Of a DNA stretch of 64,000 nt, positions 30,630-45,137 are shown one piece after another. The notes below the pieces were generated by a model. That model searched no databases and was not told the DNA's origin. It saw only the letters and a list, made by a program, of their open reading frames with translations. Every line of letters starts with the position of its first letter. Positions within the stretch are counted from its first letter, which is position 1. The DNA comes from an uncultured Holophaga sp. (lineage in GTDB: Bacteria > Acidobacteriota > Holophagae > Holophagales > Holophagaceae), in contig OY761614.1 of NCBI GenBank assembly GCA_963664825.1, positions 3,008,001 to 3,072,000 of the forward strand. Reading direction: 5' to 3'. The translations under genes and the position numbers were made by a program.

Positions 30630-31375
30630 TCAACTGGCCTCTGGTCCTGATTTCAGGCAGCGCTGGATCACTGGTCGCATGAAGTCCTGCGCCTCTGAAG
30701 CGACCTCGCTGTAGGGGGGCACCACGAGGTGCCTGGACCGGGTATAGGCGTCCCCGATCCTCTTGAGGGTGGCGTCTGTGCCATAGCTTGGCTGGAGGGC
30801 GTTGGCATCCATGCGAGGACCGTTTCCATCTTTTCGGCGAGGAAGGTTTCCACGGGATACCCCAGCACCTGCCCGCCCTGGAAATCATCGAGCATCGGGC
30901 GGATCTCGATCAGTCCCGGGGCTGGGGTGATGGGATCCCCAAAACTGAGGTCCAGCTTGATCTGGCGCGCACGCTTGGGGCCGAAACGGAACGAAATGGT
31001 GAAGCGCTGACAGGGGTCTTCCGTGTCCTCTCGGATGTCCTCCCAGGTCATGACCTGCGGCTGGAATTCCAGACGATCACCCAAATCGATCCCGAGAATC
31101 TCCGTGAGAACGCCTTCCAGGGTGTCGCTGGGGATCCGGAGAGCCAGGAAATCGAGGTCCTCCGTGGGGCGATTCCATCGCTGGGTCAGCAGATACAGGA
31201 GGATGCCGCCCTTCAGCACCAGTTGGTCTCGGTAGCGGCTTTGGGCGACCCTGGCGAGAAAACGCTCCAGGACGAAGAGGACCTGGGCATTCTCGACGCT
31301 CTGGCCGTCCACGCGCCGGTTGCTAAGGCGCTTGAGGACGCTGTCAGGGCTCTTGGTGTCGCCCTCTTTCTTCAT
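30630..31375 (-). pseudogene. AbiEii-like nucleotidyltransferase toxin with an internal deletion and frameshift
   Basis: LERFLAR, LVLKGG, R.TEDLDF, DLSFGD and LAEK present; the expected RMKDFYD-type segment is missing, and a C-terminal-like segment continues in another frame (30630-30812). Confidence 0.75.
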
Positions 31376-31950
31376 GCAAGCAGGACCGAGAGATAGCCGC
31401 GCAGCGTGGTCTTGACCCGACAAACCTCTTCCCATTGGATCAGCTCATCAGGAAGTCCTCCCTGGCGCAGGAAGGTCTTCAAGGCCTCGAAGGCAACTTC
31501 AAATCCAACCTTATCCCGGAAGCGCAGGGCATCACAGACCGTCTTGGCCTTGCTGTAGATGCGGACCTTGGTTCTGCCAACCTTGATGGTCTCGATTCCG
31601 GTGGCATGCGCGGCCTCCCCAAGGCGAATGAACCGCGTGGGGAAGGCCATCTTGGGAACCCAAGAGGTCTTGGGGATGGCGATCCAGGTCTCCCCGGGGA
31701 TGGTGGTGGTCAATCCGTGGTAGGACAGGGCCGAGATGAGACAGATGACTCCTTCGGGAACGGCTAAACATGCGTCCGCCAAGTCCTGATGCGCCCAGGT
31801 ATCCCGAGTCGCAGATCGGTAGACCCCTGCACGCAGCTTCTGGAGGCGACCGTCCTGGGCCAAGCGGAGGACGGTCGTATCCCGTCCTCTACGCTTTGCG
31901 AAAGATAGCCTGACAACCTCTTTGCGCAGTTCCGGGAGTCCCTTGGACAT
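31372..31950 (-). CDS. AbiEi-like antitoxin / transcriptional regulator (type IV TA)
   Basis: L.KLRAGVY, VPEGVICLISALSYHGLTT.IP and IYS.AKTVCD..RFR; ATGA overlap with the AbiEii gene. Confidence 0.9.
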   Translation of the reverse strand: MSKGLPELRKEVVRLSFAKRRGRDTTVLRLAQDGRLQKLRAGVYRSATRDTWAHQDLADACLAVPEGVICLISALSYHGLTTTIPGETWIAIPKTSWVPKMAFPTRFIRLGEAAHATGIETIKVGRTKVRIYSKAKTVCDALRFRDKVGFEVAFEALKTFLRQGGLPDELIQWEEVCRVKTTLRGYLSVLLA

Positions 31951-32436
31951 GCTCGATGCCTCTATTCCTACACACAAAAAATAGTGTGAATGAAAAACGG
32001 CGTCAAGGCGTAAGAATCCAGCTTGATGGAAAGGTGTTCTTTGGGGTCGCATCGTCTGCTCAGCATTCCACTCCCCTCCATTTTCGTCTTGGCGGCCAGT
32101 TCGACGACTTGGCGCTCCACGCCGTGGGTGTCGGTATAGCTGCGGGTGCGCTTCTCTCCGTGGATTAGGACGGCCTAGCCCTTGGCCAGGAGCTTCCCAG
32201 CGTGGGTCGCGAGGGTGCCCCAGGGGTATCGCACGGGCCACGGATCAGCAGGTGCGGAAGTTGTGCGCAGCACAGGCGGACTCGGGCGGATCCTTGCGAG
32301 GCGGACTGAGAGGACATCGGGCGGCGCTGGCCCACCTCCTCAGTAACGCGTGGGGAGCAGGCCAACCGCTTGGCCAGTAGGCCGGGCATCAGGGCCTTTG
32401 GGGGGACCTTGAGATCTAGAGTCACGCTAGAGTCAT

Positions 32437-32470
32437 GACGCAAAAACGGCCACCTCGTAGGTGGCCGTAA
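32437..32470 (-). terminator. Terminator-like hairpin downstream of the tRNA fragment
   Basis: ACGGCCACC-tcgta-GGTGGCCGT with an A-run on the left (U-tract on the minus strand). Confidence 0.65.
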
Positions 32471-32483
32471 GTGTTGTGTTTAT

Positions 32484-32532
32484 TGGTGGTCCCGGGGCGA
32501 TTCGAACGCCCGACCCTCAGATTCGTAGTCTG
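32484..32532 (-). repeat. att site: 49-bp copy of the tRNA-Arg 3' end
   Basis: TGGTGGTCCCGGGGCGATTCGAACGCCCGACCCTCAGATTCGTAGTCTG matches 42341-42389 at 48 of 49 positions. Confidence 0.95.
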
Positions 32533-32697: not shown

Positions 32698-33894
32698 ATG
32701 GCTGCCGTCAAGCTCAACACCCGCGTCATTACAGAGCTTGAGCCGAAGGAAAAGACCTATGCCGTGTTCGACACGGAGATCCGGGGCTTCGGGGTCCGGG
32801 TCTGGCCCAGTGGCGTGAAGGTCTTCGTGTTCAAGTACGAGCGGCAGGCCAAACAGCATTGGCTGACCCTTGGCCGCTTCGGGGAGCTCACCTTCGAGCA
32901 GGCCAAGAAGCGCGCCCTCAAGCATCGACTGGAAATCACGGATGGGCAGAACCCCGGCGCCGTCATTCGGGCCAAAAGGGAAGCCCCGAGCGTGGCCGAT
33001 CTGGCAGATCGATTCCTTCGGGACCATGCCGACCTGAAGACCAAACCCCGGACGGCGGCAGAGTATCGCCGCATGGTGGAACTCTTCATCAAACCGAAAC
33101 TTGGAAGGCTCAAGGTGGCGGACGTACTGCCCGCTGATGCCTATGAATTTCACACCAGCCTCGCCAAGACTCCGCGTCAGGCGAACCATACCTTGGCGGT
33201 GCTCTCCAAGATGTTCAGCCTCGCGGAACTCTGGGGATGGCGAACCCAAAACACGAATCCCTGCTTCATCGTGGAACGCCTCCCGGAGCGGCGGCGGGAC
33301 CGTTTCTTGACAGAGAAGGAATTGGAACGATTGGGGCAAGTGATACAGGAAATGGAAGACGCCATCACGGATTCCATCTACGTCTTTGCCGCTCTTCGGA
33401 TGCTCATCTTCACGGGCGCCCGCCTCAGTGAAATCCTCACCCTTACCTGGGCCATGGTGGATCTGGAAAACGGAATGCTTCGCCTTCCGGATTCGAAAAC
33501 CGGGGCCAAGGTGATCTTTTTGAATCCCCCGGCTATTCGCCTTCTCAAAGTTCTTCCTGAGATCCAGGACAACCCTTATGTTTTCCCCGGCGACCGGGAA
33601 AACGACCGCCTGGTGAACCTCGAAAAGCCCTGGCGGAAGATCCGCGACAAAGCCGGGTTGCCCAATGTCCGAATCCACGATTTGAGGCACACCTTCGCGA
33701 GCATGGCGGCCCAGTCAGGATTGAGTCTTCAGGTGGTGGGCGCCCTCCTCGGGCACACCCATCCGAGCACCACTAAGCGGTATTCGCATTTCGGCACACA
33801 GCCCCTTCTGGACAGCAGCAAACAGGTTGGGGCGAAGCTGGCCAAGGCCCTCGAACAGCCTGTCAAGAAACCCAGTAAGAAACAGGGTTCGTGA
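32698..33894 (+). CDS. int: Tyrosine recombinase/integrase with N-terminal arm-binding domain
   Basis: D....GFGVRV.PSG.K.F arm domain; catalytic TGARLSEI, DSKTG, HDLRH, LGH and TKRY. Confidence 0.97.
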   Translation: MAAVKLNTRVITELEPKEKTYAVFDTEIRGFGVRVWPSGVKVFVFKYERQAKQHWLTLGRFGELTFEQAKKRALKHRLEITDGQNPGAVIRAKREAPSVADLADRFLRDHADLKTKPRTAAEYRRMVELFIKPKLGRLKVADVLPADAYEFHTSLAKTPRQANHTLAVLSKMFSLAELWGWRTQNTNPCFIVERLPERRRDRFLTEKELERLGQVIQEMEDAITDSIYVFAALRMLIFTGARLSEILTLTWAMVDLENGMLRLPDSKTGAKVIFLNPPAIRLLKVLPEIQDNPYVFPGDRENDRLVNLEKPWRKIRDKAGLPNVRIHDLRHTFASMAAQSGLSLQVVGALLGHTHPSTTKRYSHFGTQPLLDSSKQVGAKLAKALEQPVKKPSKKQGS

Positions 33895-33918
33895 AGGGAT
33901 TGGGAGGGGTGGCCGGCT

Positions 33919-34401
33919 CGCCCTCGCCAGGGTCACGCCAGGGGAAAAAGCGCCCCTGTCATGCCCCCGGCGGTGAGGGCGCCCGTGTCGCTGTTCAACC
34001 CACACCAGCGCTTATTGAAGTGGTCCCAACGCGGCGTGTCGCTCCGGTCACCCATCGGACCCCGACCCTCGCGGGGGGTCCGATGGGTGACGGCAGCAGG
34101 CGGATATCAGGAGGGGGGCAAGCCCCCCCTGAAGAACTGCAATAGAGGGGAGAGCCCTCGGGATCCGGCAGCAGAGGTTCCGGGCCTTTGGCCCTCGAAA
34201 ATCCATGCTGATGTCTCGTCGAAAAGGTCCGGTTGTGGGAAACGCGAAGCGTTTTCCAGCCACGGGCCGAGGGGGTGGGAACCCTGGGGAAGGTCCCCTC
34301 GGGACCGCTTGCCTGTGGACCCGAAGGGCGGATGAAATCCGTTCCGCGAAGCGGAATCCATCGGGCAATCCACAGGGTTTCCATGCCCGAGCAACCGGAC
34401 C
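33919..34401 (+). other. Highly structured non-coding region (candidate single-strand origin, ssDNA signal or ncRNA)
   Basis: 17-bp perfect inverted repeat (34047-34063/34075-34091); 10-bp long-range stem (34226-34235/34392-34401) enclosing a four-way junction of GAA-triloop hairpins. Confidence 0.7.
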
Positions 34402-34652: not shown

Positions 34653-35216
34653 ATGGCTAAAGAAGCGGATGTTAAGACGCGTAGAAACAGTAATAAGGCG
34701 CGATCTAGCAAAACCCAATTCAACATGCCCTTGAGCGTGGAAGAGGCCCGGCAATTTGACATGATCCAAGCCGCCTGGAGCCTTCCGTCCAAGGCGGAAA
34801 CGTTCCGATGGATGCTCAAGGATTGCCATGAGCGGACCACGACCAAGGAGCACGAAACGATCCTCGGAATGTTTGGTCAGGTCCGGGGAGCGTTGGAGTC
34901 CCTCTTGGTGGAGCAGTCCCAATTCAGAACCGATTTGACCCGCGATGTCATGCGCCTGGTTGAGCGCGCCGGAAATGCCGCTGATCGAATCACGCTTGTC
35001 TCGGAAGCGGCTACCGAGAAGATCGGAAGCCGGGTCGAAAACTCGATCGCAATCACCCGGCAAATGGAACTCGACCTCAAGGAACAACTCGCCGCCGCCA
35101 ACAAGATGCTCTTCTCGGCTTTGGTCCGAATGAAGGTCGAACAGGCCTACCTGCCCGATCATGTGAAGGCGGCCATCAAGGAAGGGCTCAATCGATCCGG
35201 CCTCGCGGGCGTGTGA
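34653..35216 (+). CDS. Hypothetical protein with a possible ribbon-helix-helix N-terminus and coiled-coil C-terminus
   Basis: GGAG RBS and ATG 34653 after an AT-rich tract; TQFNMPLS.EE...FD.......SKAETFRWML resembles an RHH fold. Confidence 0.65.
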   Translation: MAKEADVKTRRNSNKARSSKTQFNMPLSVEEARQFDMIQAAWSLPSKAETFRWMLKDCHERTTTKEHETILGMFGQVRGALESLLVEQSQFRTDLTRDVMRLVERAGNAADRITLVSEAATEKIGSRVENSIAITRQMELDLKEQLAAANKMLFSALVRMKVEQAYLPDHVKAAIKEGLNRSGLAGV

Positions 35217-35596: not shown

Positions 35597-36574
35597 ATGA
35601 ATGCAGACCTACTTCGTCGCCTAATGAGAGCCATCGCTGAAGGTGGCTCTGGTGAATTGGAACAACTAGGGCATACGATTATCGAAAGTGAGCGGCGCCT
35701 TGGTCATACGAAGCTGTCGTCAGAATTGCTTTCAATTTTAATAAAAAAATCTAAAAATCGTAACCAAGGCGAATCAAGCCTAAAAGGTGATCAATCCCTT
35801 AAAGAATTGCCATCGAGCAAGAGGCGGGGGGATCTATTAGCAACCTTTATTGAGCATGATTCTTTGGAACACACGATGATTCTCCCTCCTGAGACGGAGA
35901 TGAGATTCGCAAGAATTGAGTCTGAGTTTTCCGCAAGAGAACGGCTTGGTCTGCATGGACTTACCTATAGGCGATCAATCCTTCTTCATGGGCCTCCTGG
36001 TTGTGGGAAATCGCTTGGTGCAAAAAGGCTTGCATGGAATACAGGATTGCCACTTATGAAAGTAAGATTTGATGCATTGATATCTTCATTTTTTGGAGAA
36101 TCTGCATCAAATCTTCGTACTGTTTTTGATGCAGCTAACGAAAAGCCGTGTGTTCTTTTGTTTGATGAATGTGATTTTCTTGCCAGATCGAGAATTAATT
36201 CAAAAGATATTGGAGAGGCATCTAGGATTGTCAATACTCTACTGCAGCTAATGGAGGAATTTGAGGCGCCTGGGCTGCTTGTTGCTACTACAAACATTGA
36301 ATCAGCATTGGATCCTGCAATATTTCGTAGATTTGATGATGTCTTTGAGGTCCCGCCGCCTGGTCCTCAAGAAATTGTTAAGTTGATGCAATTGACGCTG
36401 GCTTCGATTAAATATGATGGCAATATTGGTTGGGATAAAATTACATCAAAGCTCGGTAAGGCTTCGGCAGCAATGGCTGTTAAAGCAGCGCAGAATGCCG
36501 CAAAGGCTGCAGTCCTTTCCGGTCGTTTGGTTGTTTCCGAACAACACCTTGTTAAAGCTATAGCTGAATTGTAA
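35597..36574 (+). CDS. ietA: AAA+ ATPase, IetA-like
   Basis: GPPGCGKS, VLLFDECD, ATTN and LDPAIFRRFD; low GC; directly upstream of an S8 protease. Confidence 0.85.
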   Translation: MNADLLRRLMRAIAEGGSGELEQLGHTIIESERRLGHTKLSSELLSILIKKSKNRNQGESSLKGDQSLKELPSSKRRGDLLATFIEHDSLEHTMILPPETEMRFARIESEFSARERLGLHGLTYRRSILLHGPPGCGKSLGAKRLAWNTGLPLMKVRFDALISSFFGESASNLRTVFDAANEKPCVLLFDECDFLARSRINSKDIGEASRIVNTLLQLMEEFEAPGLLVATTNIESALDPAIFRRFDDVFEVPPPGPQEIVKLMQLTLASIKYDGNIGWDKITSKLGKASAAMAVKAAQNAAKAAVLSGRLVVSEQHLVKAIAEL

Positions 36575-36607
36575 GGCCTTGATTGACCAAGGAATTTCAC
36601 ATGGGGT

Positions 36608-39211
36608 ATGTTTATGCCAAACGAACATAATTTCGAGCATCTTCGTTTGATATTTGCAAAACAAGGAATAGCTCGCTTGCATGGGGGTGGGGAATCCAAT
36701 CCGATTACTGTTCAGAATAAGGACAATCGAGCTGGGCATTGCGACACCCTCATGAAGTCCGCCTGTTCGATCTCCGGCGCTTGGGGGGAGCGATTCGCAA
36801 GCCGTGCTCGGGAAAATCTCCCAGATCTTAGGGCAGGTATTCCGCTTTTGTTAAAAATCGACGAATCGATGGATGTCGATAGTTTGAGACATTTTTTGGG
36901 GTTTGAGATTATATCTGAAGAGGATAATGGTTTTGTTATCGTTGCTTCTGAGGACTTAAATCTTGGTCACTTGATTTCAAAAATAAATGATTTCAATAAT
37001 AGTGTCACAGGCTCTGCTGCTGTTGCTCAGATTCATGAATTGATTGAAGAGTCCGAAGAAGAGAATCGCTTATCAAGGATTTTGTCAGATGAGCTGAAAA
37101 ATGAATGGGCATCAATTGGGGATACGGATGACTACGTTGTAGATGTTTCTATCTCATGCTCCGGGAATTGGGTCATCCCAAAAAAACCTAAAAAAGGACG
37201 TCTAAAGCCTGAGACATGGGAGCGGAAGCTTCGTGAATGGAACGAAAATTACGAAACATCCTATATAAAATGGGACAATTTGCGCGAAGAGCGCAAGGAT
37301 GCCATTGGTAACATTATAAATTATTATGGGTCAGAGATAGTTGATGAATATGAGCAAAGTGATGGCGAAACCATTCCGGATAACTTCACTCTTCGCATCA
37401 AATTAACGGGCAAGGCTCTTCGTGATTTTGCCTCGAATTATCCTTATATTTTTGAAATTGGAGAGCCTGAAGATATTGAAACTCCACAAGGTGTGAGGAG
37501 GCAAGATTCGTTAGCTGTCCCTGATGTATCTATTTTGGCGGCACCGGCATCTGCTCCGACGGTTTGCGTCATCGATAGCGGCATTCAGGAGAATCATATT
37601 TGGATCAACCCTGCAATCGATACCGCTAACTCGTTCTGTTTTGTCCCGTATGAATCGCCCACCGACACGGCTGATTACGTGAGCAATGGGGGGCATGGAA
37701 CTCGCGTGGCCGGAGCTATTCTGTATGGTGAGGCTGTCCCGACAGGTGGCACCGTTCAATTAAATGCATGGATTCAAAATGCTCGGGCGCTTGATAAAAA
37801 CTGTGCTTTATCTAGAAGCGTGTTGCCAGAGAAATTAATCAGCCAGGTTGTCGCAAAATACCACAATGGTGATAGGCCGACCAAAATATTTAATCATTCG
37901 ATTAATTCAATAGTGCCGCACAGAAGTAGGCATATGTCTTCGTGGGCATTTGAGATGGATAAATTGTCATATCGGCATGATATATTAATTATTCAAAGCG
38001 CTGGCAATATTCAGCGGTCTGGACCGCCAAATAATCCTGGTGTTGAAGAATTGATTGCATCGGGACATGATTATCCTGAATATTTGACGCGTCGGTCGTG
38101 TAGGATTGCCAATCCGGGGCAGAGCCTTCAGGTGCTGACTGTCGGTTCTATTTCGTATGATCAATTCAGTGATGGTCATTGGGCAAGCTTCTCTGACCAA
38201 TATTCAAAACCTTCTGCTTTCAGTCGGGCTGGATTTGGGATCTGGGATTCAATAAAGCCTGAAGTTGTTGAATTTGGAGGAGATTACTTGCATAGCGGCA
38301 GGCAATCAACGTCTGTGGCTATTCCGGCAACTGGGTCAGCATGCTATCCCGAATTAATTAGATCAACATTGCACGGTGGTCCCGCATTCAGTAAAGATAT
38401 CGTCGGAACCTCGTTTTCGACCCCAAAAGTTTCAAAGCTCGCGGCAAGTATCCAGGCTGTATTACCCGAAGAGTCCTGCCTTATATATAGGGCTCTTATT
38501 GTTCAGTCTGCGCGTTGGCCGAATTGGGCTGAATCACTTACTCGAGACGAGAAGGTGCCGGTTTTGCAGCAAATCGGTTATGGTGTTCCTGATCTAAATC
38601 GAGCAACTACGAATACTCCCTATAGGACGACTTTTATAACGTCGAATGAATACGAATTAAAAGCTGGGGAATGTCATATTTTCCAAATCCCGATTCCTGA
38701 TCGACTTCGCTCCCCAGGTACCGAATATCAAATTCGGCTAGATATAACTCTTTCTTATTCTGCAGAGCCAAAGAGAACCAGGAAAGGGCGGCGAGGCTAC
38801 CTTTCTACATGGTTGGATTGGGAGACAAGTCGGAAAGGTGAGTCGATTGAAGCTTTTACGAATAGGGCGGTAAGGGAAGCTGCAAAAACTTCAACCGAGG
38901 GTCAATCCATTAATTGGACACTCGGCACTCAGGGTAATCATGGCATAATCCCTATTGCAAATCGAAATAATGGAACCGTCCAGAAAGATTGGGCTCAAAT
39001 TAGTTCAAATGAACTCCCTGAATTCTTTTGCATCGCTGTTCGCGGCCACCAGGGATGGAACAAAGATCCAGAGGCCTCTGCAAAATATGTTTTGGCTGTT
39101 TCAATAGAAAATATTGGAAGTGAAATTGAAATATATGAAGACCTTCGAGCCGCTGTCCAGGAACTTCAGTCTGAAACAGAGGTCGAGATGGAGCTGGAGG
39201 TAGATGTTTAG
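36608..39211 (+). CDS. ietS: S8 subtilisin-like serine protease, IetS-like
   Basis: Catalytic triad VIDSG / HGTRVAG / GTSFSTP; SAGN; KPEVVEFGG; GYGVPD; no signal peptide. Confidence 0.85.
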   Translation: MFMPNEHNFEHLRLIFAKQGIARLHGGGESNPITVQNKDNRAGHCDTLMKSACSISGAWGERFASRARENLPDLRAGIPLLLKIDESMDVDSLRHFLGFEIISEEDNGFVIVASEDLNLGHLISKINDFNNSVTGSAAVAQIHELIEESEEENRLSRILSDELKNEWASIGDTDDYVVDVSISCSGNWVIPKKPKKGRLKPETWERKLREWNENYETSYIKWDNLREERKDAIGNIINYYGSEIVDEYEQSDGETIPDNFTLRIKLTGKALRDFASNYPYIFEIGEPEDIETPQGVRRQDSLAVPDVSILAAPASAPTVCVIDSGIQENHIWINPAIDTANSFCFVPYESPTDTADYVSNGGHGTRVAGAILYGEAVPTGGTVQLNAWIQNARALDKNCALSRSVLPEKLISQVVAKYHNGDRPTKIFNHSINSIVPHRSRHMSSWAFEMDKLSYRHDILIIQSAGNIQRSGPPNNPGVEELIASGHDYPEYLTRRSCRIANPGQSLQVLTVGSISYDQFSDGHWASFSDQYSKPSAFSRAGFGIWDSIKPEVVEFGGDYLHSGRQSTSVAIPATGSACYPELIRSTLHGGPAFSKDIVGTSFSTPKVSKLAASIQAVLPEESCLIYRALIVQSARWPNWAESLTRDEKVPVLQQIGYGVPDLNRATTNTPYRTTFITSNEYELKAGECHIFQIPIPDRLRSPGTEYQIRLDITLSYSAEPKRTRKGRRGYLSTWLDWETSRKGESIEAFTNRAVREAAKTSTEGQSINWTLGTQGNHGIIPIANRNNGTVQKDWAQISSNELPEFFCIAVRGHQGWNKDPEASAKYVLAVSIENIGSEIEIYEDLRAAVQELQSETEVEMELEVDV

Positions 39212-39264: not shown

Positions 39265-39579
39265 TCAGTTCTCGATGAACCGCTCTGGTTCGAAATCCTG
39301 CTCCATCCTCATCACGCCGATAACCCACAGCTCCTTCCCGGCGATCCGGTAGATCACCCGGAAGGGGCGTACGCTGAGGAGTTCCCGGTAAGTCTGTCCC
39401 AGCTCCGGGATGAAGCGGGCCATCTCAGGGAAAGCGGCTGCATGTTCGACAGCTTCCATGACTCGGGCGAAGAGGTTTTGGGCGGCCTCGGGGTTCTCAA
39501 AGGCGATGTATGACAGCAGGGCGTCAAGGTCCCGTTCGGCGGGATCCGACCAACGAACGCTGAGGGGTTTCAGGCCCAT
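39265..39579 (-). CDS. Type II TA toxin, RelE/ParE family
   Basis: V.WS..AERDL..L..YIA.ENP.AA, FPEM.R and FRVIYRI. Confidence 0.9.
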   Translation of the reverse strand: MGLKPLSVRWSDPAERDLDALLSYIAFENPEAAQNLFARVMEAVEHAAAFPEMARFIPELGQTYRELLSVRPFRVIYRIAGKELWVIGVMRMEQDFEPERFIEN

Positions 39580-39833
39580 CGCTTCGCCATCCGGGCCTTC
39601 ACGTCTGCGTGAGAGCTTGCCCGCCCTTCCGTGAAGGCCTGTTCGCCCTTGGCGATGACCTCCAGCAGTTCGAGGCGATGAAGCATGCCCTTGTAGGTCG
39701 CCACATCCAGCATGACGGCAGCCTCCTTGCCGTGCTCTGTGATGAGCACCGGCACACGATCAGCGCGGAGCTGGTCGATGATCTCGGTTGCGTGGCGCTT
39801 GATTTCGGTGACGGGCTTCAGGGCGGGCAACAT
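39570..39833 (-). CDS. Type II TA antitoxin, Phd/YefM family
   Basis: GGAGG RBS; PVTEIKRH..EII......PVLITEHGKEAAVM; overlaps the toxin start. Confidence 0.9.
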   Translation of the reverse strand: MLPALKPVTEIKRHATEIIDQLRADRVPVLITEHGKEAAVMLDVATYKGMLHRLELLEVIAKGEQAFTEGRASSHADVKARMAKRWA

Positions 39834-39976
39834 GGCGGGCCTCCAGAACCAAGAATGATACTTTAGTGCCACTTCGGCAAGGGCCTCATGGTTGAACCTG
39901 ATTACTGGCTCCGCGATCTGGGCGTACCGCTTCGTGCCCCATTCGGGACTGGATGCGCTGTCAGGCTTGAGTTGTG

Positions 39977-41482
39977 TCATGTCATCTCTCCTATCGGGGG
40001 CGGCCCCGTCATGGTTGGAACCCAGTACCCCTTGGCCTTGAGTCCCGCTTCGAGGTGTTCCAAGGCTGAAAACGCCCGCCGAGACGCGATTTGCAACCAT
40101 GTGTGAAGGTCCAAGGTGGCCATGAGCCCGCGAAGGGTTTCTCGACGCCGGGTCTCATCCTTGGATGGTTCCTTTACTGGAGCGCCGTCAGATATTGCAG
40201 GGGTATCAAGCGAACAGGAAGCACCCGCTTCGCGGGCCGCAGCGCCCCTCAGATCGGCCAGAAGCTCCGGTGAAAGGCCGTCCCTGGCCTCGCACCACTC
40301 AGGGGCCTTCCAACGGCTTCTGGCAGCCCCCACGCATTCGAAGACGCGAGGGCTTCGATTCCAGATGCCATCGCGCAGGTAGTCACCTGGAAGGCCTGAC
40401 ACGATCCACTCGCCTGGATGCTCCGGATCGGGAACGTAGCAGGCGATGTCATCGGCCTTGGTGCAGTATTTCAGGGTTTCCTGGATGGCGTCTTCCAAGG
40501 ACATGGCGTTATCGCCCCGGCGTGTCCTGCGGTTGACGGCTTGAACGTGGATGCAGGCGGTGATGGCTTTGGCGCGGTTTTCCATCTGGGGATAGAGGTC
40601 TTCCAGCTCGAACCCGTAGACACGACGCGTAGCCGTTCGCAGGCAGGCCCACCACGCCGCCGCCAAATCGGCTTGGGACACGTACCGCGCCCAGGCCAGC
40701 AAATGGAAATGCGGGTGATGCAATACAACCCCATCCCAGAACGATTTGCGGGTGACCTCAAAGCCACGGAAAGCAGCGAAGACCGTGGCTTTGAAGATGT
40801 CCAATTTGCGAAAGAGGGACCAGGCCAAGAACATGCGTTCCTCTTCCCGCACCTCGCAAACGCTCGACACGATGGAGGGATCTAGCGTTGGTGTGGTGAG
40901 TGTCCAGGCGACAGGCAACACTTTTCCCGCCTCTTTCGTGTCGTACGCCACAGCCCAGAGGCGGCGCCGAACGTGCCGGATTGCCTCGCGAGCCTTTTTC
41001 CTGGAACGCACACTCAGGCGCCGTTGGTAGGCGGGTGCATAACGCATGGAAGCGCCGAAGCCAGATCCGCCCATGCCGAAAAGCCGATCTCCATGGCGGC
41101 CCACCACGCCGTACGGAGTTTGAGCTTCGAGCAGCAGGAGCGCCGCGGAACGCAAGGCCAAGCCTTCCCCTGGTTTGGCCATGATCTCAAGCCCATCGGC
41201 ATCCAGGAGGATCACTTCTCCGGTGTCATCCCGGCTCAAGCGCACCTTTCCGCCCGCGAGGGATTCCGCCAGTGCAGAGGCATAGCGGGATGCTGAGCAG
41301 GCGCGGTACTGAGCTGTGCGAATCGATTCCGTCAATGAGCCGAGGACCTCTCCTGAAGTGGGATCGACCACGAGCGGGCCTTCTGACGTGTCGAGAACGG
41401 CCAGGCCTTCCCATGTCGCAGGACATGGCGAAGCCGGGGTGTCCCGAGCGCCCTTGTGCGGGGAGCCCGAGCCACCTTCCAT
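39977..41482 (-). CDS. rep: Rolling-circle replication initiator, HUH endonuclease (Rep_1/pC194-like); start uncertain
   Basis: Motif 1 WTLTTP, FEVT, motif 2 HPHFHLL and motif 3 ETLKYCTK in the canonical order. Confidence 0.85.
   Translation of the reverse strand: MEGGSGSPHKGARDTPASPCPATWEGLAVLDTSEGPLVVDPTSGEVLGSLTESIRTAQYRACSASRYASALAESLAGGKVRLSRDDTGEVILLDADGLEIMAKPGEGLALRSAALLLLEAQTPYGVVGRHGDRLFGMGGSGFGASMRYAPAYQRRLSVRSRKKAREAIRHVRRRLWAVAYDTKEAGKVLPVAWTLTTPTLDPSIVSSVCEVREEERMFLAWSLFRKLDIFKATVFAAFRGFEVTRKSFWDGVVLHHPHFHLLAWARYVSQADLAAAWWACLRTATRRVYGFELEDLYPQMENRAKAITACIHVQAVNRRTRRGDNAMSLEDAIQETLKYCTKADDIACYVPDPEHPGEWIVSGLPGDYLRDGIWNRSPRVFECVGAARSRWKAPEWCEARDGLSPELLADLRGAAAREAGASCSLDTPAISDGAPVKEPSKDETRRRETLRGLMATLDLHTWLQIASRRAFSALEHLEAGLKAKGYWVPTMTGPPPIGEMT
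40204..40236 (-). other. Candidate double-strand origin (nick site CTTGATA with an upstream hairpin)
   Basis: Minus strand CCCGC-GAA-GCGGG, 13 nt, then CTTGATA; CTTGATA is the pC194/phiX174 nick core. Confidence 0.5.
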
Positions 41483-41576
41483 CGTAAATGTGTGCAAGAT
41501 TGCAGCCACGCTTGCGCGAAGACACGCCCCAGGCGAAGCCAGGGCTCAAAGGCCTGAAAGGCGCGTCAGCGTTTGA

Positions 41577-41822
41577 TTAGCGGCGCTGGTAGTAGGGGCC
41601 GGGATCCACCGTGGACCGGCGCCGCTGAGCTTCCAGCCAGCGCGTGATGTCGTCCATGGTGTAGAGCACCCGGCGAGGGCTGATGCGCAGATACTCCGGG
41701 CCTTCGCCCGTCATGCGTAGGCGCTGGAGATAGGCCTTCTTCATGCCCAGGTATTCAGCGGCTTGTTGGGTCGTGAGGAAGGGAGTCTTCACGGGCTCTG
41801 GGGTTTCCTTGCGGGTAGCCAT
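41577..41822 (-). CDS. Excisionase/AlpA-like HTH protein
   Basis: GGAGG RBS; FLTTQQAAEYLG......L.RLR..GEGP.Y.RI..RRVLY...DI..WL. Confidence 0.9.
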   Translation of the reverse strand: MATRKETPEPVKTPFLTTQQAAEYLGMKKAYLQRLRMTGEGPEYLRISPRRVLYTMDDITRWLEAQRRRSTVDPGPYYQRR

Positions 41823-42299: not shown

Positions 42300-42325
42300 A
42301 AAAGAGCCGCCTTGTGGGCGGCTCT
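42300..42325 (-). terminator. Terminator downstream of tRNA-Arg
   Basis: AGAGCCGCC-ttgtg-GGCGGCTCT with an A-run on the left. Confidence 0.7.
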
Positions 42326-42340
42326 AAGTGTTGTATTGAT

Positions 42341-42417
42341 TGGTGGTCCCGGAGCGATTCGAACGCCCGACCCTCAGATTCGTAGTCTGATGCTCTATCC
42401 AGCTGAGCTACGGGACC
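42341..42417 (-). tRNA. tRNA-Arg(ACG)
   Basis: GGTCCCG acceptor stem, D-arm TAGCTCAGCTGGATAGAGC, TCAGA-CT-ACG-AA-TCTGA anticodon arm, TTCGAAT T-loop, encoded CCA; 77 nt. Confidence 0.97.
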
Positions 42418-42794: not shown

Positions 42795-45137
42795 ATGAGC
42801 GAACTGACACGCAAGGAAGTGGTTTTCATCCTCAAGTCGGGGAAAGACTTCCATCGCACCGACTTGAGTGGTCTGGACCTCCGGGGCTTCGATCTGTCCG
42901 AGGCCAACCTTTCCGAGGCCAATCTGGCCGGCGCGGTCCTCAATCAGGCCTCCCTGCGGGGCGCCAATCTCGCGGGCGCGGATCTGCGTTTGGCGAATCT
43001 GGATGAAGCCGATCTCGAGGGCGCCAACCTGAGTCGGGCCAAGCTCGCCGGGGCCAATCTGGCGGGCGTGAACCTCGCCAAGGCCGACCTGAGTCATTTC
43101 GATATCCAGCAGTACGAACCGGCCACCATCCCCAATCTGCGCGGAGCCGTGCTGAGCGGGGCGCTGCTGAGCGGCGTGAACCTGGGCGGCCTGGATTTGA
43201 GCGGGAAGGATCTGCGGGGCGCCAATCTGAGCGGCGCCGATCTGCGTCAGGCCGTGCTTGAGGGGGCCAATCTGGAAGGCGCCAGCCTCTCCCAGGCGAG
43301 CCTTTTGGGGGCGGCCCTGGGCCACGCCAACCTCCTGGGCGCGAACCTGTCTGGGGCCGTGCTAGGGGGCGCCGCACTCAACCGGGCCGATCTCTCCGGG
43401 GCCAATCTCTCGGATGCCGATCTCCATTGGGCCAGCCTTGCGGAGGCCAATCTCGAAGGGGCCAATCTCAGTCGCGCCAATCTGAAGGGCGCTAATTTGA
43501 GCGGCGCCAATCTGGTGGGCGCCGATCTGCGCTACCTGGACATCCTCCAGTACGACAAGAACGATATCCCCAACCTGGCGGGAGCCAATCTCTCCGGCAC
43601 CAATCTCTCTGGCACCAATCTGCGGGGGATCGACCTCAGTCGCTCCAATCTGAGCAAGGCCGATCTCAGCACGGCGGTGCTGCGGCACGCCAGCCTCGAG
43701 GGCGCCAATCTTTCCGAGGCCAATCTCAAGGGGGCCGATCTCACGGGCACCAATCTCAGTGGCGCGGTGCTCTCGGGCGCCAATCTGAGCGGTGCGCTCC
43801 TGAGCGGCGCCGTGCTGAGTGCTGCGGATTTGCGCGGTGCCGATCTCACAGGCGCCGATCTCAGTGAGATCAATCTCAGCGGCGCCAATCTCTCCGACGC
43901 AATTCTCTCCGGAGCCAGTCTTTCCGGCGCGCTCCTGGATGGCGCCGTGCTGGCGGGAGCGGTGCTGGTGGGCGCCAACCTCAAGCGGGTAGATTTCTCC
44001 GAGAAGAATCTGCGGGGGGCGAACCTGGGGAATGCCGATCTCTCCCAGGCCAACCTGGATGGTGCCGATCTGGCCAGCGCGGTCTTCTGCGGGGCCAATC
44101 TCTCCGAGACCCATCTCGGCGGAGCCAACCTCCACCTCTCCCGGCTCACGGGCAATGATCTCCGCAGCGCGAATCTCTGCGGGGCCAATCTCAGTGAGGC
44201 CGATCTCAGCAGCGCGAACCTCGAAGGCGTCATCCTCAGCGCCAACTTGCAGGGCGCCAACCTCACAGGGGCCAGCCTCCGCGGGGCCAGTCTGGACCGG
44301 GCCATGCTCGCTGGCGTCAACCTCAGCGGCACGGACCTCACGGGCTTCATCCTCGAGGGCATGGACCTCAATCATGCGGTGCTCGACGGGGCCAATCTGA
44401 ACGGGGCCAATCTGCGCAGCGCCATTCTCCGGGAGGCCCGGGCCGTGGGCGCCGATCTCAGCCTCTGCAACCTCTCCTCGGCCGATCTCAGTGGCAGCGA
44501 GTTGCGTGGTTCGAATCTCTTCAGCGCCAATCTCGAGGGCGCCAACCTGAGAGGGGCCAAGCTGGCCTCCCTGCCCACGGAATCCTGGGGCGAGTATCGC
44601 ACCAATCTCAGCAAGGCCAATCTCCGCGGCGCCGATCTCACAGGAGCCGATCTCTACCAGGCCAACCTGAACGAGGCGAATTTCGTCAATGCCGATCTCA
44701 GCAACGCCAACATGGTGTGGGCGGATCTGCGGGGCGTCGATCTCCGCCAGACCAATCTCACCGAGACGAACCTCAAGGAGGCCAATCTCGATGGGGCCAA
44801 TCTCTGCGGCGCCGATCTCCGGGAGACCATCCTGCGGGACGCCTACCTGGATGGCGCCAATCTCTCCGGGGCCAATCTCAGCGGCACGAACCTGTCCGGC
44901 GCCGATCTGCGGCACACAAACCTCATCGATGCGGCCATGGATGGTGCGAACCTCTCGGATGCCAATCTGAGCGGCGCGAACCTGGTGTGGACCAACCTCT
45001 CAGGGGCCAATCTCAATCGCGCGAACATGAGCCATGCCAAGCTCAGTGGCGCCAATTTGGGAGGGGCCGATCTCCGGGAGGCCAATCTCACGGACGCCAA
45101 TCTGGATAGCACCAATCTCGCGGGCGCCAAGCGCTAA
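42795..45137 (+). CDS. Very long pentapeptide-repeat protein (780 aa)
   Basis: Near-continuous A(N/D)L(S/R/E)G pentapeptide repeats; AAGGA RBS. Confidence 0.95.

Follow-up and report, generated by a model that had tools for sequence, protein, structure and literature searches.

The plus strand of the window, that is, the whole 64,000-nt stretch of an uncultured Holophaga sp. genome analysed here (contig OY761614.1, positions 3,008,001–3,072,000), carries a nested, branched structure, hereafter motif A, which is conserved among relatives, most likely folds as single-stranded DNA (ssDNA), occurs mainly at the ends of DDE insertion sequences (ISs), and repeats in its stems and 5′ tail sequences found at the host replication origin, oriC. 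By analogy with the A site of the ABC primosome, motif A may be a DnaA-dependent signal for helicase loading and priming, a reading to which we give roughly an even chance. The parts of motif A in the window are as follows.

34205–34401, plus strand: motif A as a whole, with an unpaired triplet tail, a spacer and a branched ssDNA fold of nested junctions.
34205–34213, plus strand: conserved unpaired 5′ tail, ATGCTGATG in the window copy and (CTG)n-ATG in homologues.
34226–34401, plus strand: outer stem P1 (34226–34235 with 34392–34401), fully paired, with a sequence unlike that of homologues.
34234–34258, plus strand: hairpin 1, with a GAA triloop.
34234–34242, plus strand: tail-proximal putative DnaA-like box TGTGGGAAA in hairpin 1.
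34259–34267, plus strand: small 3-bp hairpin of the outer junction, with the loop ACG here and GNA in most homologues.
34271–34388, plus strand: long stem that holds the middle junction and two more putative DnaA-like boxes.
34309–34368, plus strand: inner zero-linker four-way junction with three GAA hairpins, as obtained by DNA folding.

The initial annotation described a nested multibranch fold with a cloverleaf of GAA-triloop hairpins, and all of the helices that it named are present at its coordinates on the plus strand. Folding with DNA parameters reproduces the cloverleaf at −59.5 kcal/mol with a z-score of −7.05, which is better than shuffled sequence (0 of 200 shuffles equal it), while the minus strand is weaker (−52.3 kcal/mol, z −5.64); with RNA parameters the plus strand gives z −5.96, yet the minimum-energy structure lacks the cloverleaf. 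Only two sites in the 3.47-Mb genome have three GAA-triloop hairpins (stems of at least 5 bp) inside 200 nt, one being the window fold and the other lying on the minus strand. Since a 3-bp hairpin occupies 34259–34267, the outer junction of motif A is four-way too, and the partner strand of box TGTGGGAAA is completed across it with one G·T wobble; in the inner junction, TGTGGA is paired with TCCA-(bulged T)-CG. The window copy is without the CCC-GNA-GGG arm that homologues carry at the middle junction (34271–34388), and its tail scores a weak 1.5 on the oriC-trained profile. The lost arm and the weak tail favour decay of this copy, and the fully re-paired outer stem favours past selection on it. 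In the preferred reading, held as a whole at about even confidence, the window copy is accessory and slightly decayed. Another dispersed intergenic repeat with GAA-loop hairpins (GCGAAGC / CCCGAAGGG type) occurs in the same genome at about 2,279,870–2,279,970 on the minus strand and at similar sites, and the motif A model gives no match to it.

Homologues were collected by blastn and then with a covariance model built from 13 copies. Of 133 genomes from the host family, 48 contain motif A by this model; the host genome has 8 copies, and the highest number per genome is 13. The copies are related to one another, so these counts overstate independence. In the 13-row alignment, 94.1% of cells pair, and RNAalifold alone recovers nearly the same structure. 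The fold is conserved with covariation, as 24 of 80 pairs change on both sides in the 13 homologues, against a shuffled mean of 9.4 (0 of 500 shuffles reach motif A) and 4–8 pairs in slid controls, although roughly half of the 13 rows come from IS256 ends that are related to one another, which overstates the independence of the covariation. Across the phylum, model R1 matches 4 of 151 genomes, the single match outside the family being weak, from an unpublished genome and not used for any claim, and the model is therefore family-specific. A pattern scan of species genomes returns at least 124 stretches, nearly all from Acidobacteriota, and the stretches listed are simpler three-way folds sharing the first hairpin of motif A; versions of the motif range from a single hairpin with two tandem boxes up to three nested junctions. 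The Rfam scan proposed in the initial annotation, run on the window and 30 homologue loci, gave nothing above the gathering threshold and six chance matches (E 0.5–8.8). Likewise, blastn of motif A against plasmids and phages gave short chance matches only, which leaves the suggested packaging signal without support, and one hairpin pattern had no match in viral contigs; a looser hairpin pattern gave 117 stretches, of which only a few are true folds. Decayed copies of motif A lie at the same position, downstream of groEL, in two genomes (loci L200 and L210).

Three features distinguish the strand and the molecule that fold. In the paired columns of 87 distinct family copies, 408 G·T and 39 A·C pairs are found on the given strand (the 3 weakest of 91 matches were dropped, and the alignment is fitted to the structure). 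Folding without any model gives the lower energy to the given strand in 59 of 61 and in 62 of 64 non-redundant copies, in support of the plus strand as the one that folds in the window, as had been suspected from its G·T pairs. RNA prefers GNRA and UNCG loops, whereas the 318 hairpin loops of the family set comprise 140 C(GNA)G triloops, 4 GNRA and 1 UNCG; on the reverse strand, UNCG tetraloops make up 1 of 314 loops (Holophagaceae set). Mini-hairpins of the GNA type reportedly have exceptional stability as DNA and are found where phages and plasmids are primed (PMC13037366). Because of the G·T excess, the strand stability and the abundance of GNA triloops with few GNRA or UNCG loops, motif A most likely folds as ssDNA, and folding in one specific DNA strand is a property that it shares with the A site. 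The initial alternative of a functional ssDNA element or a new non-coding RNA is accordingly narrowed to its first half by the loops and the strand data.

At each level of motif A, TGTGG(A/G) recurs in pairing with (T)CCA-CA, in many cases with a G·T wobble or a bulged base, and the same core is concentrated in dnaA-dnaN regions. The host dnaA gene lies about 11–15 kb from the GC-skew minimum. In 24 Holophagaceae dnaA-dnaN regions (24 of 31 loci, no dnaN start being found in the other 7; two loci from unpublished genomes were excluded from the oriC analysis), TCCACA and TCCGCA are the top hexamers. The density of TCC(A/G)CA is 19.8/kb in these regions (n = 24) compared with 1.27/kb genome-wide, a 15-fold enrichment, and the core hexamer reaches 12.1/kb in the dnaA-dnaN regions of 22 other Acidobacteriota. 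Motif A carries this core in its stems, and 59 copies have it at 8.7/kb, besides 69 wobble and 37 bulge-interrupted versions; the DnaA-like boxes are putative, as they are defined by enrichment, and their first three positions are loosely constrained. The 11 oriC regions tested have no fold of their own (z −1.6 to +0.4), so the fold of motif A is not a by-product of box clusters.

The tail of motif A also follows the host. In Holophagaceae oriC, the last DnaA-like box is followed by a 14-nt spacer (22 of 23 regions) and then by a TCAGCATCATCA-like sequence, while in other Acidobacteriota the last box is followed after 3–7 nt by CTA-type triplets (16 of 22), described as the canonical DnaA-trio tract (PMC8287927, PMC6669920). 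The 5′ tail of motif A is the reverse complement of the element beside the last oriC box of its own lineage. Scored against profiles built exclusively from oriC sequence, the tails favour the profile of their own lineage in 33 of 35 Holophagaceae copies and in 60 of 72 copies from the other lineages; Holophagaceae tails score 5.38 against −3.92 ± 0.67 for shuffles and other Acidobacteriota tails 2.61 against −0.90 ± 0.39, in each case above shuffles only with the own profile and on one strand, with the reservation that the profile anchors were picked after both sets had been viewed and that 1 of 35 tails is mis-anchored. A combined box and tail pattern has 20 matches genome-wide, 8 of which are the 8 copies of motif A. 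The basal unwinding system of oriC consists of DnaA boxes, a GC-rich spacer and DnaA-trios (PMC6669920, PMC8287927), and motif A keeps the order and the strand of box, GC-rich spacer and triplet tract, with a tail and a spacer length that follow the host dnaA-dnaN region by lineage. Unlike oriC, motif A folds, resides on mobile DNA, has spacing 3–8 nt longer in Holophagaceae (about 17–22 nt from box to tail in family copies against the fixed 14 nt) and has triplets that deviate from 3′-GAT-5′. The Holophagaceae tail has reverse polarity compared with canonical DnaA-trios, the central C of other lineages often replaces the essential A, and motif A lacks the three or more NAN trios (3′-GAT-5′) within 16 bp of a box described in PMC8287927; its tails may therefore not be DnaA-trios, and they point to a divergent unwinding element in Holophagaceae oriC. 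The Holophagaceae oriC candidates (L245, L251–L279) have boxes ending in CC(A/G)CA, the fixed 14-nt spacer and a TCAGCATCATCA-like tract, with no canonical CTA trios, and the DnaA proteins of the same loci have HHSTVMN(A/S) in a divergent domain IV signature.

The initial annotation regarded the fold as a feature of the region downstream of an integrase gene, but most copies of motif A lie at the ends of DDE insertion sequences. Among 172 classified copies, 112 are within 500 nt of a DDE transposase, namely 51 of the 88 found in the family and 61 of the 84 found by pattern (the latter from 80 loci with flanks), and the families involved are IS256 (20), IS21 (18), ISNCY (20), IS481-like (18), IS3-like (20) and ISL3 (16). 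In 81 of these 112 copies, motif A is downstream of the transposase gene, on the opposite strand, and points from the IS end into the element. Other layouts occur among ISL3 and IS3-like elements, and relative to the transposase gene the strand of motif A varies, being the non-coding one in 91 copies and the coding one in 21. Identical IS copies place it inside the element, about 110–170 nt from one end, in a 1583-bp IS256 and a 2516-bp IS21. These two ISs are unrelated and have the stretch upstream of motif A in common, which indicates that the module has moved between IS families. The remaining copies are solo, in IS remnants or in islands, such as five related islands with a MobF-like relaxase in which motif A lies 1–2.6 kb upstream on the relaxase coding strand (L044, L203, L207, L211 and L224, four of them with a panD-like gene). 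Motif A is thus not specific to the integrative element of the window, whose features are given below.

32443–32532 and 42300–42389: 90-nt repeat bounding the 9.9-kb element.
32484–32532, minus strand: att duplicate, repeating the 3′ end of tRNA-Arg and marking one boundary of the element.
32698–33894, plus strand: tyrosine integrase (PF00589, PF13356).
About 33905–34200, minus strand: motif B, a separate conserved multi-hairpin structure on the rep-coding (nicked) strand.
34653–35216, plus strand: 187-aa ORF, no family match.
35597–39211, plus strand: IetA ATPase and IetS subtilase defence pair, cargo.
39265–39980, minus strand: Phd-type antitoxin and ParE-type toxin pair.
39977–41509, minus strand: Rep_1-like HUH rolling-circle initiator, weak match to PF01446 below the curated cut-off.
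40204–40210, minus strand: candidate nick site CTTGATA inside the rep frame.
41577–41822, minus strand: HTH_17 excisionase-like gene.
42341–42417, minus strand: tRNA-Arg(ACG), the integration site.

The element is inserted in tRNA-Arg, with motif A 330 nt downstream of its integrase gene. The N-terminus of the 187-aa ORF looks like a small DNA-binding protein, judging from its sequence, and the IetAS cassette (35597–39211), cargo of the rolling-circle integrative element, is low in GC. Just outside the att duplicate, at 30668–32241, is an AbiEi/AbiEii-type pair, probably part of an older island at the same tRNA, and a 780-aa pentapeptide-repeat-like ORF (42795–45137) adjoins the tRNA. One sequencing run contains the complete element on one contig, and no excision joint was seen among the contigs listed from that run. 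The HUH and Tyr motifs of the Rep_1-like protein are invariant across 18 homologues, and alignment to viral contigs found no relative. CTTGATA at 40204–40210 is a putative nick motif of the pC194/phiX174 type, and the nick position is inferred from it; it lies in the 3′ part of rep and is kept in several rep homologues. It is conserved as coding sequence, encoding L-D-T in 17 of 18 aligned homologues, and in Rep_1 plasmids the nick site is normally upstream of rep, a position within the gene being unusual. A CTTGATA of locus L033 was rejected as a nick site because it falls in an RHS-core gene.

Rolling-circle replication releases the nicked strand, and the single-strand origin (sso) sits on that strand (PMC5714925). 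The candidate nick is on the minus strand, which is therefore the predicted displaced strand, and motif A folds on the plus strand, opposite to what an sso requires. Nor is it kept in related replicons: none of 20 Rep-homologue loci, most of them short, carries it, it was not found in 32 loci searched (Rep_1 relatives and neighbouring-motif loci, mostly fragments), and the Rep_1 relative L003, the sole Rep homologue long enough to include the region downstream of int, has the same layout without motif A. The proposal of a single-strand origin for motif A is not supported by these results. Like ssoA/ssoU and the phiX174 ssi (PMC5714925), motif A is a strand-specific conserved fold in a Rep_1 element, and motifs A and B are back to back on opposite strands like the ssiA/ssiB pair of RSF1010; unlike these, motif A occupies the strand that is not displaced, was not retained by the Rep relatives, and is accompanied by no element-encoded primase.

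Motif B, in the 300 nt immediately upstream of motif A, fits the position of an sso better. In 12 of 12 homologues its core is more stable in the minus orientation, and for the region as a whole z is −5.97 on the minus strand compared with −3.2 on the plus strand. It is present in the window, L008, L032 (twice, inverted) and L033–L041, near Rep_1/MobA, MobP, RecD2 and primase-integrase genes; in both L008 and the window its strand is the one that codes for rep. In one unrelated primase-integrase element, motif B is followed by the outer frame of motif A without its interior. Motif B has no Rfam match; its main hairpin presumably resembles ssoA/Frpo-type elements. It is a candidate single-strand origin or ssDNA promoter of the element, and for this element a better single-strand-origin candidate than motif A. 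The opposite polarity of motif A, left unexplained initially, is thereby answered for the minus strand but not for the plus strand, where motif A in the window could be an additional loading site on the opposite strand or else a passenger that arrived recently.

The nearest system with experimental support is the ABC primosome, whose A site is an ssDNA hairpin with a DnaA box (Masai 1990, cited from PMC6127211); DnaA bound to this box loads DnaB, so that DnaG and Pol III can act (PMC6127211). Motif A is likewise an ssDNA fold, has putative DnaA-like boxes in its stems, and is proposed to use host-only machinery for helicase loading and priming. The A site, which originates from plasmid R6K, is one hairpin with one box, whereas motif A is branched, has several boxes at three- or four-way junctions, and differs further in its GNA mini-hairpins, its oriC-like tail and its residence mainly on DDE insertion sequences; its activity is predicted only. 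Motif A would join the A-site design to the oriC unwinding layout, with duplex boxes and, on their 5′ side, a triplet tail that stays single-stranded. According to PMC5737381, ssDNA folds of such complexity are uncommon, and none resembling motif A is listed there. No description of motif A was found in the open-access papers searched, and we rate it, on its sequence features, as a variant of DnaA-dependent ssDNA signals without a prior description found.

As proposed here, motif A would be a portable ssDNA signal that recruits the host initiator DnaA. Once the plus strand becomes single-stranded or is extruded, it would form stacked junctions capped by SSB-resistant GNA mini-hairpins, its stems would offer several duplex DnaA-like boxes, and its unpaired 5′ tail would copy the triplet element beside the last oriC box. 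DnaA, once bound to the boxes, would spread along the tail and load the replicative helicase, whereupon primase and Pol III would copy the strand, as at the A site. The zero-linker junctions would allow coaxial stacking, so that boxes are completed across the junction; that the junctions rebuild better boxes than the duplex holds is a weakly supported suggestion. It has been reported that DnaA filaments grow along the direction of a single-stranded 5′ triplet tail (PMC6669920). Circular intermediates are on record for the families IS3, IS21, IS256, ISL3 and IS1202 (10.1101/2023.06.07.543989), and in such ISs motif A might be used at the replicative copy-out step, the natural step being replication of the figure-eight into a duplex circle (PMC7780238); in islands and plasmids it might be an accessory priming or helicase-loading site. 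The DnaA-dependent reading is weakened by the strand of motif A in the window, opposite to the predicted displaced strand, and by L003, by the box-to-tail distance and the reversed tail polarity, by the non-uniform strand relative to the transposase, and by the lost arm and low tail score of the window copy. If it is true, a cis-acting DnaA site in such elements would make the IS replication step testable, and DnaA-dependent ssDNA priming would extend from one plasmid hairpin to a widespread module.

Alternatively, motif A might work as a duplex or cruciform, mini-oriC-like DnaA site, serving local unwinding, DnaA titration, or transposition or excision tied to the cell cycle, with the fold as a regulatory switch. 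The linear sequence is likewise rich in box cores, the succession of box, GC-rich spacer and tail is that of oriC, and this reading accounts for the non-displaced strand here and for the absence of replichore bias in the four genomes compared (15 lagging-template versus 14 leading-template copies). We consider it unlikely, as the conserved strand-specific wobbles, bulges and GNA loops are not visible in duplex DNA and many boxes are broken in duplex form.

Less probable still is DnaA-independent priming, in which DnaG would start at the tail triplets next to a fold that keeps SSB away, in the manner of the phage G4 origin, or PriA or RNA polymerase would recognise the fold. The tail triplets of both lineages have a central T (CTG/ATG and GTC/GTA), and E. 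coli DnaG starts at CTG. In addition, mini-hairpins occur at the G4 and RSF1010 priming sites (PMC13037366). This reading leaves the DnaA-box core, and its switch to TGCGGA in step with oriC, unexplained. GAAGCGG, the hallmark of PriA sites, is not conserved in motif A, and no promoter-like site is present, which also leaves the ssDNA promoter proposed at the outset without support.

A structured non-coding RNA, e.g. an antisense transcript read inward from the IS end, is very unlikely: the z-score with RNA parameters, the G·U wobbles and the antisense position downstream of most linked transposase genes would agree with it, but GNA triloops far outnumber GNRA and UNCG loops, no Rfam match and no promoter or terminator consensus was found, and the match to oriC would go unexplained. 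The preferred DnaA-dependent reading draws on that match.

REP/REPIN repeats with their RAYT proteins are also dispersed palindromic ssDNA structures (PMC6006769), and motif A shares with them some solo intergenic copies, but it is much larger, branched and embedded in DDE elements. A REP/REPIN-like or MITE-like repeat spread by an HUH (Y1) transposase, with the window copy a neutral passenger, is the least likely reading of all and is largely refuted for four of the five genomes tested: although 34 of the 88 copies in the family are more than 500 nt away from any transposase gene and PMC6006769 describes class 3 Y1 proteins, with a CnGA foot, from Acidobacteria, G000, G113, G122 and G114 (8, 11, 13 and 6 copies) have no Y1_Tnp match, the five Y1_Tnp genes of G118 lie no nearer than about 30 kb to a copy, so that no cognate Y1 transposase is flanked by the repeat, multi-copy cases are whole ISs with motif A inside, and several solo copies retain IS end sequence.

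A branched DnaA-box fold analogous to motif A was also found with a pattern modelled on proteobacterial IS ends, and three records inspected have it at the following places.

L434, 2950–3140: IncW origin.
L435, 2960–3170: pXAC64 origin.
L436, 2950–3180: end of a Polaromonas IS21.

The pattern matches 92 plasmid records, mostly redundant Xanthomonas and Xylella plasmids. The analogue comes directly after iterons and an AT-rich stretch in the IncW and pXAC64 origins, and in the Polaromonas IS21 it is just downstream of istB on the non-coding strand, as in Acidobacteriota IS21. Its likeness to motif A is one of layout. A far-reaching extension, which we hold tentatively and at clearly less than even likelihood, is that one exchangeable ssDNA "origami origin" is common to ISs of several copy-out/paste-in families (IS256, IS21, IS3, ISL3, IS481-like and ISNCY), to mobilizable islands and to iteron plasmids. 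Only in its folded form would it rebuild the host oriC unwinding module with DnaA boxes completed across four-way junctions; it would track the oriC code of each lineage and would give the element its own DnaA-dependent replisome-loading site for turning a figure-eight or displaced strand into a duplex circle. The analogue beside the IncW and pXAC64 origins is open to testing in laboratory strains, and in 4 of 4 sequences tested the strand of the analogue with G·T pairs folds better.
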